Shown piece after piece: positions 18,001 to 63,000 of a DNA stretch of 64,000 nt; positions within the stretch are counted from its first letter, which is position 1, and the number at the start of each line of letters is the position of its first letter. The stretch is from the NCBI GenBank assembly GCA_964351225.1, contig CAYGNG010000004.1, positions 29,188 to 93,187 of the forward strand, given 5' to 3'. The stretch comes from an uncultured Gammaproteobacteria bacterium. Its GTDB lineage: Bacteria > Pseudomonadota > Gammaproteobacteria > CAYGNG01. Made by a program: the position numbers.

Positions 18001-21000
18001 AAAGTTTCCTTTAAGGATCAATGAGGGTTCTTCTTGTTCTTTTGCAAATGCAATAATGCTCTGGACATCGGTATGGACACTAAGCACCAAGCCACGAACG
18101 ATATATCGAGCATTGGCTTTTATGTTATTCTTGATTTCTTCGCGCGCACCAGAGTTTAAATAGGCCACAAAATTTTGGGGCGTATCCGGTCTTTTCTCCT
18201 CACATTCCTCTTCTAAAGATAAAGGAATAGACCTATTGCTCTGCCTATCATAGAAGTCAGCCAAAACTGTGCAGGCTAATACACAGGCGAATTCATCAAA
18301 ATCTTCCTTTAAGACGCATTCTATAAACTTACCGATAAAATAGGCACAGCCGCTTGTGAGGGCGTCATCTATTGCCGCTTCATTTTTTAAAAAGCGCTCT
18401 AAACCAAGACGGTTTGTGATGTTATAAAATTTCCGTTTAACCGCTTTAATGTGTTTTGTTGTGAAGATCATAAAGTATCGCCTAGTACAAATTGCTGTTG
18501 TGCTGTAGCTGTTCAGAAAAAAAACGGAATAGTTACTCTGGTTTTGCCGCCGGTCAAGGCAAAGCCTTGGCCGGCGGCGCTTACTCCCCCTTGAGAATTC
18601 CCCATCGCCTACTTTCGATGTCTCTGCACGTTTTGGGTGAATAGTTACGTTGCGCTTTTATCCTATTTTCACACGAAACCTCATTCAGAGAGACTGGGGA
18701 CCCGTTGCCGCAAGCCCAGACCACAATTCATAAGAAATCGCGCCCCCTCCGGAAAAAAACAAACTCCTGGTGTTTTATTGGCTGTATAAAATCTGCCGCT
18801 AATCAGCATACCATGTTTTTATCATACCGCTTACGTAACCAGATGTTAAAAGGGATAAACGGTACCAGATGAAACTTAAGGAAATATTAACGCGAGAGCC
18901 GCGCTGCAAAGTAATTGTCAATCGATGCTGGAAATAATAGCCTGGAAATAACTGGGCATTTCGGGTCGTTCGTACCACGCTAATACCGCTGTAACCGCTA
19001 AAACGTGATGACTATTTAATACAACTAATTTACCCGCTTGTACAAATGGTTCAGCAAATTCCTTAGGCAATGCCGTATACCCTAAGCCTGCAACCACCAG
19101 CTCAGCAATGCTGTCGGTATGATTCATAAAATATCTTGCGTATTGTGCCAGAGGAAATAGGTTATATTTTTTGAGATAATTAAAAGTCATTTGGTCATTC
19201 TCATCAAAATCGATGATTCGTTCACTGTGAATGATTTCTTTAATCTCTCGTCTTGCCCATTGACTGCTGCCAACTAAAACGTATTGCTCTGGCTTGAGTT
19301 TCTTATGATGCATTTCTGCAGCCAAGTGCGCTTCTTGTAAAACCACAAAATCACATTGTCCTCGGCGTAATTGCAAATGTCGTTGCTCCGAGTCTTCCAC
19401 CTGATAACGAAATAATAAATTAGGATAGGCCTTCATGATTGGCAAACAAGCTGGAATAATGCGAGAGCGCATCATACTTGATGGTGCGCTGATCGCGATT
19501 TCAATTTCCGTTTCGGTGCCATAACCTTGTATTTTTGCTAAGGTTTCACCCTCTAATTCGCTTGCCGCTTGGCAATACCGTAGCAATGCCTCCCCCTCTT
19601 GAGTTAACTGCATACCACGGCGAGTACGAATAAACAGCGTTGTTCCCAGATTACTCTCCAGCGTACGGATCCGCTGCGTGACCGCGGTTTGAGTTAAATG
19701 CAATTGGCTAGCGGCACCATGAACTGTTTTTTGCCGAACTACCGCGAGAAACGCTACTAATTGAGGGCTTAGTAAACTCATAAATTTTTATCAAACAATA
19801 AAAATGATTCATTATTTAAATAGCATATCCTTTTGTATAATACAAGCTCATATCGAAATGATTGGAATGATTTGACTTAACAATATGAATAATAATGAAA
19901 AAAAACATATTCATGGCTTTGCGCTGGTTATGCTGATGACCGGAGCCGTGGACGGCATTAGTAATATCCCGTCAATCGCCATTTTCGGGCAACCGTTGGT
20001 GTTTTTCTTTATTTTAGCCAGTTTACTCTTTCTTATACCGGTTGGCTTTATTTCTGCCGAACTTTGCGCCCAATTCAAAGACGACAGTGGCGTTTATGCG
20101 TGGGTAAAAAAAGCGCTCGGCCCGCATTTTGCTATTCTGGCGATCTGGTTACAATGGATCAATACCATGGTTTGGTTTCCAACGTGCTTAACGACCATTG
20201 TCGGCACCATTGCTTACCTGTTTATGCCATCGCAATTACACAACCCTTATTTTTTAGTATTTACGAGCCTCGCTATTTTTTGGCTGATGACTTGGATTAA
20301 CCTAAAAGGACTTAAGCAATCGGCGCGCGTCGCTTCTCTGGCAACCTCATTCGGAATGCTCTTGCCTATTGTGATCATTATTGCTCTAAGCGGGTGCTGG
20401 CTTGTTTTGGGTAAAAAGCTAGCGGTTAATCTCAATGCCAGTGCCATCTTTCCAGATTTACATCAAGCCAGCACCTGGTCTTCGTTAACAGCAGTGGTCA
20501 CCTCCTTTCTCGGAATGGAACTTGCTACGGTTCATGTTCGTAAAGTACAAGGGGCACATCAAAAATTTCCTAAAGCCTTACTTATCACTGTCGTCATCAT
20601 TATATTTACCATGGGATTGGGCTCGCTTGGTGTGGTGTTAATCATTCCTCACGACGAGATTGCCTTAGTGGCCGGAACCATTCAAGCCTTCCATACCCTG
20701 CTGGTGGGGTTACATGCCACGGCACTTGCGAATGTACTTGGCGTGATGGTACTGTTCGGCAGCCTGGGCGCTATGATTAACTGGCTTATCTCACCTGCAA
20801 ATGGGTTAGCGCAAGCGGCAGAGGATGGCTATTTGCCCCAGCTGTTTTCTCGAGAGAATGAACACGGTGTGCCGAAAAATCTTTTGCTCTTACAAGCAAT
20901 CGTCGTCAGCATCATCATCGGTGTGTTTTTCTTATTACCATCGGTCAATGGGTCGTATTGGTTATTATTATCGTTAAGTACTGAACTCTATGTAACCATG

Positions 21001-60000: not shown

Positions 60001-63000
60001 CAAAGAATAATCCAACCCGAGCGCAATACCACGTAAAATAATTTCTTCTTTGCTCATGTTAATTAACGGTGCGTGTATTGTGAACTTATGTCCTTCAACA
60101 CCGGCTTTGGTAGCAAGGCACGCCAGTTGTTCAAACGCTCGAATGTATTCAGACCGACAATCCGGATAATTTGAATAATCAATACTATTGGCACCATAAA
60201 AAATATCAAACGCACCAATCGTTTCGGCAAACCCAAGCGCAAGCGATAGTAAAATGGTATTTCTTGCTGGAACATAGGTTATTGGAATTTCAGTGGTGAC
60301 CATTTCATGTGGAATTGATAAGCTGGCATCGGTTAAGGCTGAGCCACCGAATTGATTCATCGTTACGTCTATTAGCCTATGGTTATCTACGTGGTAGTGT
60401 TTCGACAGTTTCTTTGCTGCATCCAATTCCGCTGTTGCTCTTTGTCCATAATTGATACTTAGCGCATAACATTCAAATCCCTGTGCCATGGCAATCAACA
60501 AAACCGTAGCGGAATCTAAGCCGCCAGAGAGCAACACAACTGATTTTCTACTAGACATTTTCAACCCCTATTACGGTAAAATATAGCAATTTTTCGCACG
60601 ACATGGTACTTTAAAACTCAATCATAGTGCAGAGAAATTAAAGCGATGTAACATTTACCCAAAAATTACAGAGCCATCAATAATAATATATGACAAAAAC
60701 AATTCATTCCTTAGCCGATGGGGAATTATTTAGGACTTACGACAAACGATTCTGGGCAATATTTTAACGCAACACAGCGCATTTAACGTAAGTTCTCACC
60801 AAACTTCCGCGTTGTGATGGCTAAATAGGATAAAACGATGTTAAGCAGTCGCATTGAAAATTTCATTCAGTATTGCGCGCAACTTCAAAAAGAACAAGCG
60901 ATTATTCTTGATTGTGGGGCCCGAAAGATCGCCTTCACTGAGCTTCCCGCCTTGCTTGAGATAATGATATCCCGAGGCTATAGCACCCAATTAAGTGAAC
61001 TTATTTTTCCCGCCTATGATGACCATAAAATTGAAGCGAATGAAATAAAAACGATCGTAACACAAATAGATGACCTTTTTTTTGATAAGCCGGGTACACC
61101 ACCCAAATTTCCGAGACTTGCGGAGGTTACATTCCCGGACTATTACGATGATCAAAGCTTGGATTTGTTGTTAAAAAATTTGCCGCAAATCACTTTTTTT
61201 AAGTTCGTTTTTTCACCTAAAAATCCATTGTATCTCGATGTTAGCGATTCCATTGTAATCCAGCACGAGCAACACAATGAAGTAAGCATCGATCTTGCGC
61301 AACATGTCACGTCCTTTTACAGTCTGATCAAAGTATTGCAAATATTGAGCGAAAATCCCTCTTGTGGGCATGTCGTTCGGCTTTTATATTCTCATAAAGA
61401 TCCTCGTCTAAAACTGAAGCCAAAGTATCCCAATCCTTCCCCTGCCGTATACTGGATGCACTTCCATGATTTTCTGTTTAAAGCGCCTCATCTTAGAACG
61501 CTTCAATTGGATTATTTGGATATTCCTCCTGCAATTTTACAACTCTTTCTTGCCGGTCGCGTTTATTGCGAAGCCGATGTCAAAGCCCTAGGAGAACACA
61601 CCGCGCCTTTTGAGCAACTTCCTTTTGAAAAATATGAATTATTACCCAGTTTAACCGCGTTATCCCTTGCACATTGCAATTACTCGATGCACCAATTGCT
61701 CGATATTCTTGCGATGCTTGCGAAATTTACACCTTCTCTCAAAGAATTAACAATTAGACCGCCTCACCCCAGCCAACCTCCCCAAAGAAGTGCATTTATT
61801 GCAGCGATTAACCAGCTACTCGAGAAAAAAGAGCTCTATAAACTCGACCTGAGCGGTATGATAATTGACAATCAAATAGCAAACGGTCTTCGTCAAATTA
61901 TAAAAACAAGGCATTTAAGACAATTACACCTAAATCACTGTCGAGTAACCGGACTTATAGAAACCATATTCCCCACCGGTGAATCGTTGAAATGCAATTT
62001 AACTCATGTCTATTTAGCGGGTTCTTGTCTGTCAATTGACGATTTAAGATGGCTGTTAAAATCACTGAACCCTGCAACTCTGCAATTTTTAGATATTAAC
62101 GGTTTAACCTCGAGTAAGGGTGAGCTTGTTAGAGAACTCGAATTGTTCTTTCGCCGAATTTCTAACCCCGTGATTACCGGTTTAGACTTATCTGGCGTTG
62201 GATTAACTGCCGATGATTTAAAAGCTATCGACACGTGTTTTCCAACTTTACCTCACTTAAAACAACTTAACTTAAGCCATAATAACTTGGAACGTGCAGA
62301 GGTTTTCCCTTTTAAGCGTTTCCCCGAATTAGATACGCTGTTGCTTACCAACACCAATATCCACTGGGCTGGCGACAATGTAAGCCATTTTCTGTTTAAG
62401 AATGCTCCCAGCAGCAACTTAGCCCATGTTGAAATTGGCGACAACCAAAGAGCCCCTCGCGTTAAAGAGCTGGGCGATATCTTGCGCTGTTTCAAAGCAC
62501 ACCGCGTAAAAACGCTATTGTTATCTTTTAAATTTGACCTTTGCAGCTTGAATCATCTTCACTCTCTCATTGTAAGCACCGGATTCACAACGCAACGCGG
62601 CGGAAGCTTTTTGCTCCCCAATATCGCTGAAATGAATCAACAACCTACCGACTCTCGCACAACAGCACTTATTTCACAACTCACTGGCCTTATAAACGAC
62701 CTGATTTGCAGTAATTTCCAGCCAAGCCACCCCAGGAAAAACCAGCCAGCTCATGAGACACGACGGCTGTCATCGCCACAACACGCTTTATCAAAAACTC
62801 AAGACAGCTCATTTTTCAGATGCCACACCCCGCATACCTTATCTTTTGACGTCACATCTGGTGATGACTCAACGCTTACGACAACAAGCGCTTTCTGGTG
62901 ATTGCTGTGTGCTAGCGCCCTGGGGTATCACCCCAGAGTATTTTATGTAACTGTAGTTGAAACCTCACGGGCAGCTGATCCGCTACTATCCAATTTGCCA

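Follow-up and report, generated by a model that had tools for sequence, protein, structure and literature searches.

A family of small modular palindromic repeats in the gene spacers of an uncultured Gammaproteobacteria bacterium

The repeat loci and their genomic setting

The DNA considered here is a stretch of 64,000 nucleotides (hereafter the window) from an uncultured Gammaproteobacteria bacterium, corresponding to positions 29,188 to 93,187 of contig CAYGNG010000004.1 in the assembly GCA_964351225.1. It carries a family of small repeats built from a GC-rich palindromic core and accessory modules, referred to as M1, M2 and M4, that are distributed over five loci (A to E). The window has a GC content of 42% and contains 3,595 nt of non-coding DNA (5.6%), in which every core is located. 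A small, modular, palindromic and intergenic repeat family had been predicted from the same sequence, and the recurring modules and hairpin cores bear it out; module M1 was absent from the original prediction and is added here. The complete element has the module order M1-M2-core-M4 and a length of ~125-135 bp. The loci are the following.

18515-18648, minus strand: locus A, M1-M2-core-M4 and then T8; the sole complete copy.
50135-50214, plus strand: locus B, a core with a perfect 9-bp stem, M4 (CAAAACCGAAGTAACTATTCCG) and an inverted second copy of the 10-mer GTAACTATTC that forms a 10-bp hairpin.
51048-51184, plus strand: locus C, M1 (51048-51084), a CATCGAAAG duplication, an A-rich spacer, the core (51116-51160) and M4 (51155-51184).
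59660-59882, plus strand: locus D, M1, spacer, core D1, spacer, M2, a 15-bp hairpin and core D2.
60650-60734, plus strand: locus E, decayed and core-less, with a degenerate M1 (60652-60678), a spacer and M2 (60709-60734, 88%, E=4.7e-7).

Module content is different at each of the five loci. Pairwise identities between loci range from 65 to 96%, which indicates that the copies are of unequal age.

The genes next to the loci have unrelated functions (LysR, an unknown 971-aa protein, def, a VanX-like protein, a CBS-domain protein, queC, tRNA-Lys and a 687-aa LRR-like protein). Locus A occupies the spacer between the LysR gene (stop 18918) and the 971-aa gene (start 18471) and runs in the same direction as both. 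Locus B begins 7 nt past the def stop codon and is followed by the VanX-like gene, and locus C ends ~20 nt before the start (51203) of the CBS-domain gene. Locus D lies between queC and tRNA-Lys, both encoded on the minus strand, and is antisense to both; its M1 adjoins, on the upstream side, the promoter region of tRNA-Lys and is antisense to the tRNA. Locus E sits in the divergent promoter region of queC and the 687-aa LRR-like gene. All four loci with a core (4/4) are in spacers flanked by same-direction genes, and A, B and C are oriented as their flanking genes.

The core palindrome

The 15-mer CAAGGCTTTGCCTTG at the centre of the core has five exact matches in the window for 0.20 expected, and at least five matches were reached in 0 of 100 shuffled sequences. 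The recurrence of the palindrome noticed at first reading is thereby substantiated. The exact sites are the following.

18555-18569, minus strand: CAAGGCTTTGCCTTG in core A.
50149, plus strand: CAAGGCTTTGCCTTG in core B.
51132, plus strand: CAAGGCTTTGCCTTG in core C.
59728, plus strand: CAAGGCTTTGCCTTG in core D1.
59854, plus strand: CAAGGCTTTGCCTTG in core D2.

With the longer 25-mer GGCCAAGGCTTTGCCTTGCCCGGCG, all five core sites were matched at no more than three mismatches (expected 0.00). Cores D1 (59714-59756) and D2 (59840-59882) are identical over 43 of 43 positions and look like one local duplication, so that the independent core loci number four, in addition to the core-less locus E. 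The five cores were found in 77 kb examined (window and extensions).

Every core folds into a hairpin of 13-14 bp (9 bp in B) despite changes at the foot of the stem. The stem of core A (18540-18584, minus strand; profile E=2.7e-13) consists of 8 bp, a C/A mismatch and 6 bp closed by a TTT loop; that of core B has 9 bp and no mismatch, and those of cores C and D have 13-14 bp and are bulged. The region of D2 folds with -58 kcal/mol (z=-6.2). All four independent copies agree throughout the 15-nt tip with its TTT loop, against 9/24 invariant columns next to it (Fisher p=9e-5). The stem is preceded by TTAAG or GTAAG and followed by GGCGTC (B and C), GGCGGC (A) or GGCGGTC (D). With 33-35 nt, the core has the size and form of a repetitive extragenic palindrome (REP) in the broad sense, i.e. 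an imperfect palindrome of 20-40 bp with a stem-loop.

Core D1 is accompanied by a small rearrangement. Over 59714-59769 (plus strand), the core is followed by a tandem extra copy of the 14-mer CCCGGCGGTCTAAC, the duplicated pair spanning 59743-59769; this suggests slippage or duplication at the hairpin.

Accessory modules and the 10-mer boundary motif

Module M1, whose consensus is GTAACyATTCACCCAAAAC..CAGAGACATCGAAAG, was detected by repeat finding, by blastn-short of the intergenic DNA against the window and by nhmmer profiles. It is present at four loci. The copies of M1 and the longer copies of M2 are the following.

18612-18648, minus strand: M1 of locus A, GTAACTATTCACCCAAAACGTGCAGAGACATCGAAAG; 86% identity to 51048-51084, E=1e-9.
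51048-51084, plus strand: M1 of locus C.
59660-59696, plus strand: M1 of locus D, GTCGCTATTCGCCCAAAACCTGCAAAAGCATTGAAAG; E=1.3e-8.
60652-60678, plus strand: degenerate M1 of locus E; E=0.11.
18584-18611, minus strand: M2 of locus A, TAGGCGATGGGGAATTCTCAAGGGGGAG; 28 nt, 96% identity to 59796-59823.
59793-59843, plus strand: M2 copy of locus D, leading into the perfect 15-bp hairpin CTTAAGGGGGAGAAT-gca-ATTCTCCCCCTTAAG.

The M2 motif TAGGCGATGGGGAATTCT is exact at 18594-18611 (minus strand) and 59796-59813 (plus strand) and has two mismatches at 60712-60729 (plus strand). A module with this motif had been reported at three places, which is correct apart from coordinates that were 1-2 nt off. The M4 motif AGTAACTATTCCG is exact at 18525-18537 (minus strand) and 50181-50193 (plus strand) and has two mismatches at 51167-51179 (plus strand); a T-run after M4 is conserved in A and B. 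The three sites of this module had also been recognized previously. The GTAACTATT/AATAGTTAC hairpin attributed to it is in fact confined to locus B, where its arms are 50182-50191 and 50205-50214.

The 10-mer GTAACTATTC has four exact matches in the window for 0.13 expected, all four of them within elements. It delimits element A as a perfect direct repeat (18648-18639 and 18536-18527, 10/10 positions) and flanks element C in the same manner at 8/10 positions. The flanking sequence is the same at both loci, which implies that it is either part of the element or a specific target. At locus B, GTAACTATTC is found as an inverted pair enclosing just 13 nt. The 10-mer contains TTAC, the target in an IS608-type reading that was considered by eye.

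Gene ends derived from the repeat

The cores are all intergenic, as had been claimed; the claim does not extend to whole elements, two of which contribute to the ends of genes. The open reading frame (ORF) of the VanX-like D-Ala-D-Ala dipeptidase (50307-51098) has as its last 16 codons the M1 of locus C, and its stop codon (51096-51098) falls within the element. The C-terminal residues encoded by M1 are VTIHQKWTETSKASKV. All of the homologues compared (10/10) end at ...YFNFP[VI][KR], or a few residues beyond, where M1 begins, which indicates that the element replaced the native stop codon of the VanX-like gene. To judge from these homologues, which stop 2-3 residues past ...YFNF, the annotated C-terminus of the protein is not ancestral; the original stop is predicted to have been 2-3 codons past ...YFNFQ. 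The protein has one identical database entry; identity drops to 57% or less for the next matches, some of which carry the label Coxiellaceae, and the loci of the nearest homologues are not syntenic. In a similar way, the stop codon of queC is in the TCTAAC flank of D2 (complement of 59878-59880). The 3' extension of the VanX-like gene and the queC stop codon together point to the addition of element sequence onto pre-existing gene ends, as has been described for QMITE2 of Coxiella.

On Logan contig L098 (1-3084, equal to window 18639-15556, minus strand), the 971-aa ORF is called through element A as far as the end of the contig, giving a 1027-aa product. This call is a mis-annotation induced by the repeat at the contig end.

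Distribution and contig ends

The family was searched for in sequence collections that do not contain the source genome. Among the species-representative genomes of GTDB (185,579 species), the core 19-mer had no Coxiella match and was not found in multiple copies in any genome; scanning them for the exact pattern returned 71 scattered, generic GGCAAGGC-TTT-GCCTTGCC hairpins in unrelated, mostly high-GC taxa and with dissimilar flanks. A scan of JGI metagenomes gave one chance match and no related copy, and viral contigs gave no match to the core and 18 chance matches to M2. Plasmids and phages searched by blastn gave no match. All open six-frame translations of the elements, joined into a pseudo-protein intended to detect false ORFs lying across further copies, had no match at E<=10 among 5.8 billion proteins. 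No Rfam family was assigned at the gathering or E<=1 thresholds, except for a meaningless 15.9-bit match. No further copies were found in Logan contigs that lengthen the window by 4.2 kb leftward and 8.9 kb rightward, no similar repeats in a 20-kb locus of a Coxiellaceae metagenome-assembled genome, and no paper in a literature search with the palindrome string.

The Logan contigs of the same organism, assembled from short reads on a k=31 graph, bear on the existence of copies elsewhere. Out of seven contig ends observed, three are inside elements, which cover <1% of the DNA. Contig ERR3534985_16436 (L096) starts at 59853, i.e. with the last 30 nt of the 43-nt D1/D2 repeat; this coincidence with an exact repeat at k=31 indicates that contig breaks mark exact repeats. 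Contig ERR3534985_17847 ends at 18639, the GTAACTATT/CACCCAAAAC junction of element A. Its terminal 30-mer (18610-18639) is M1 minus GTAACTATT and reaches the junction of M1 and M2; the other M1 copies of the window are 78-86% identical and cannot explain this break. Contig ERR3534981_163811 (L073) ends at 50191, the final base of GTAACTATTC in B, an end that weighs less since sample ERR3534981 is fragmented. Among the breaks at 18639, 50191 and 59853, an exact repeat within the window explains 59853 only, which suggests that the 30-mers at the breaks in A and B occur in other contexts in the samples. Very probably, the DNA beyond the region seen holds one or more further M1 copies that are nearly identical, or else a polymorphic allele.

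Comparison with known repeat families

To judge by its architecture, the family most closely resembles the QMITE2/REP elements of Coxiella and the bacterial interspersed mosaic elements (BIMEs) of enterobacteria. The BIMEs of Escherichia coli combine REP units with conserved linker motifs; their REPs alternate in orientation and carry the tetranucleotide GTAG. The window family is similarly made of a palindromic unit and a few conserved accessory motifs, combined differently at each locus, extragenic and associated with same-direction genes. It differs from BIMEs in that its cores are singlets or direct duplicates and its accessory modules, at 28-37 nt, match the palindrome in length.

QMITE2 of Coxiella burnetii has terminal inverted repeats of 24-29 bp, together with direct repeats of 7-11 nt that are specific to each locus (Wachter et al. 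2018, PMC5896051). Compared by description, both families place a REP-like palindrome inside a larger element of ~130-190 bp, occur as full-length copies beside truncated 'REP-only' ones and reside mainly in 3' untranslated regions (UTRs) and intergenic DNA, with an overlap of a few nt with the ends of ORFs. The host clades also seem related, homologues of window proteins being labelled Coxiellaceae. In contrast to QMITE2, the ends of the window element are one shared direct 10-mer and no GTAG is conserved.

The GTAG and CGTC super-families of REPs are species-specific and located mostly between unidirectional ORFs, downstream of coding regions (Di Nocera et al. 2013, PMC3733652). The window cores share with them this species-specific occurrence and this location, a palindrome of 20-40 bp flanked by conserved unpaired bases, a loop that is very short, and stems tolerant of G-T pairs, suggesting a role at the RNA level. 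Their stem exceeds that of the CGTC families in length, and the A/T first pairs and the CCA tail of the latter are missing.

The neisserial intergenic mosaic elements (NIMEs) with dRS3 and the Correia elements are intergenic mosaics of repeat blocks delimited by a short recurrent motif. dRS3 is a small inverted repeat that serves as an integration target for phage or IS110-type elements. It has been listed as CGTC-1 (PMC3733652). In the window family, GTAACTATTC would be the equivalent delimiter. There is no sequence similarity with the neisserial elements, however, and nothing is integrated at the window elements.

Other assignments were considered and rejected. The reading as intrinsic terminators is opposed by the lack of a U-tract adjoining the stems, and the terminator scan called no core hairpin; the T-runs in A and B are 25-30 nt past the stem. 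An integron attC site was rejected by eye, the RYYYAAC-like GTCTAAC being found in the D copies only and on the wrong side. A promoter borne by the element was rejected as well, since promoter-like sites are outside the elements or merely touch M4 in C. One such site, a near-consensus sigma-70-like promoter at 50221-50249 (TTAACA-17-TATAAT, 11/12), is located directly 3' of element B and precedes the start codon of the VanX-like gene by 58 nt.

Origin of the family

The family is probably a lineage-specific, non-autonomous mosaic repeat whose spread relied in trans on an enzyme with its gene elsewhere and whose copies afterwards underwent shuffling, local duplication and erosion. In kind, it is a REP/BIME-like family, a new one within an already common class of bacterial repeats. 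A single local duplication is ruled out, since the five loci extend over 42 kb and both strands, share 65-100% identity and differ in their subsets of modules.

The copies would derive from one four-module repeat of ~125-135 bp and would now vary in completeness and decay. The element would have landed in, or recombined into, spacers of same-direction genes, and in some places its sequence would have taken over the final codons, or else the stop codon, of the gene upstream. Reshuffling, local duplication (D1/D2) and partial deletion (B and E) would have followed. The mobilising enzyme, encoded elsewhere in the genome, would likely be a hairpin-recognising (single-strand) recombinase of the HUH/RAYT-like type (RAYT, REP-associated tyrosine transposase) or an IS110-like one, reading the invariant tip of the hairpin and/or the GTAACTATTC boundary motif. 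The hairpins would be transcribed within 3' or 5' UTRs. Their most probable effect, if any, may be to shield the upstream mRNA from 3' exonucleases or to cause partial read-through attenuation.

Several points weigh against such a mobile origin. No transposase, RAYT, IS200-like or Y1/HUH gene was found among the ~40 window ORFs scanned. Terminal inverted repeats are absent from the elements, A and C carrying one motif, directly repeated, at both ends, and target duplications particular to a locus are not evident, since different loci share the flanking 10-mer. Neither an empty site nor a polymorphic insertion came to light; the nearest relatives are non-syntenic, with ~55% protein identity. 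Five loci in 77 kb form the basis for judging copy number, orientation bias and the grammar of the modules. The contig breaks could likewise be caused by strain polymorphism or coverage gaps, and the invariance of the tip is partly an ascertainment effect, the copies having been found via the tip.

It is possible, though unlikely, that the repeats are instead a selected cis-acting RNA or DNA signal, a regulatory or processing site recruited at several operons, for instance a stabiliser of mRNA 3' ends, an attenuator, an element of the 5' UTR or a palindrome bound by a protein. This would agree with a 15-nt tip and loop that stay invariant while the flanks drift, with the orientation of 4/5 loci as the downstream gene at 19-104 nt from its start codon, with the start of B 7 nt past a stop codon and of D2 over one, and with the conserved T-run after M4 in A and B. 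It fits poorly with neighbouring genes of unrelated function, with D being antisense to both its neighbours and with a module content that varies between loci, E having no hairpin. The elements have, moreover, no Rfam match, no U-tract directly 3' of the stem and no conserved internal promoter. The motif was not found in the other genomes searched, so that no conservation backs a function.

It is quite improbable that the family is a true member of the REP-RAYT system, i.e. a population of REPs or REPINs mobilised by a single-copy RAYT transposase. The cores are GC-rich imperfect palindromes of 33-35 nt with unpaired conserved flanks and, like REPs, are extragenic, between unidirectional ORFs and downstream of coding regions (PMC3733652); a CGTC-like GGCGTC is found 3' of the stem in B and C. 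The tags of these super-families are not conserved, however, since CGTC is present in 2/4 independent copies and GTAG in none (PMC3733652). REPINs consist of two REPs in inverted orientation forming one long hairpin (PMC3337134), whereas D1 and D2 are direct and 126 nt apart and the cores of A, B and C are singlets. The stem of 13-14 bp and loop of 3 nt also depart from the 8-9 bp and 4-5 nt of the CGTC families, and the scanned window ORFs include no Y1/HUH transposase.

There is a slim chance that GTAACTATTC is where an undescribed, site-specific system of mobilisation specifically recombines or cleaves DNA, a system different from REP/RAYT and from MITEs (miniature transposable elements with inverted repeats) of the terminal-inverted-repeat type, with the modules being cassettes exchanged at the 10-mer. 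The clues are the direct repeats that bound the full element, the hairpin formed by the inverted pair in B and the breaks of two independent contigs, at 18639 and 50191, at the edge of the motif.

A classical MITE, i.e. an internally deleted insertion sequence (IS) that has terminal inverted repeats, depends on its parent IS for movement and produces duplications of the target site, is very improbable: a length of 125-135 bp without conserved frame or coding capacity is within the size range (<500 bp, non-coding; PMC10969869), a 10-nt direct repeat surrounds A (10/10) and C (8/10), truncated 'REP-only' versions stand beside full ones as in QMITE2 and ORF ends are overlapped, yet the ends of A and C are one direct motif without inverted repeat, the flanking 10-mer is identical across loci, in contrast to target duplications of the ordinary kind, the core is rich in GC, MITEs being typically rich in AT and having terminal inverted repeats of ~4-30 bp (PMC10969869), and no IS or transposase was found among the ORFs scanned. 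Of the REP/MITE-like character originally ascribed to the repeats, the general REP side is retained (GC-rich hairpin in a 42% GC genome, siting in spacers, shuffling of modules) and the MITE side is not.

Other features of the window

Large or eukaryote-like genes are clustered in the window.

5336-12445: 2369-aa protein (weak ResIII match).
13610-15559: ankyrin-repeat protein.
15556-18471: 971-aa protein without family.
53215-54192: WD40 beta-propeller protein.
60838-62901: 687-aa protein (faint LRR match).

These genes look like effectors of an intracellular bacterium, and the Ank, WD40 and LRR-like genes fit an intracellular lifestyle of the Legionellales/Coxiellales kind.

A second, unrelated repeat, AAAGCAAnTnnCAACAGGCCC, is present in four copies for 0 expected, at 25202-25222, 34710-34730 and 38276-38296 on the plus strand and at 36169-36189 on the minus strand. 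Two of the copies, 34710 and 36169, form the arms of an inverted pair of 44 nt around the glucokinase gene and a 115-aa ORF. This repeat may serve as a binding site for a protein or represent one more family of small repeats. At 5272-5315, between the convergent genes 2087-5194 (plus strand) and 5336-12445 (minus strand), there is a perfect inverted repeat of 20 bp whose loop measures 4 nt (CACCCCTTAGTTCCGATAAT/ATTATCGGAACTAAGGGGTG); it is probably a bidirectional terminator.

Significance

Small palindromic mosaic repeats are common in bacteria and the family in the window leaves the general picture unchanged. It provides a lineage-specific sequence signature for an uncultured bacterium that appears to be Coxiellales/Legionellales-like and of intracellular type, and it accounts for breaks in short-read assemblies. 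It also calls for a correction of the annotation, as the last 16 residues of the VanX-like protein and the stop codon of queC derive from the repeat. If many copies with the GTAACTATTC boundary exist, the family would make a tidy case for studying how modular repeats move without inverted ends. It would equally be a case for asking whether an IS110/IS1111-like or HUH enzyme targets the repeats, as in Coxiella burnetii.

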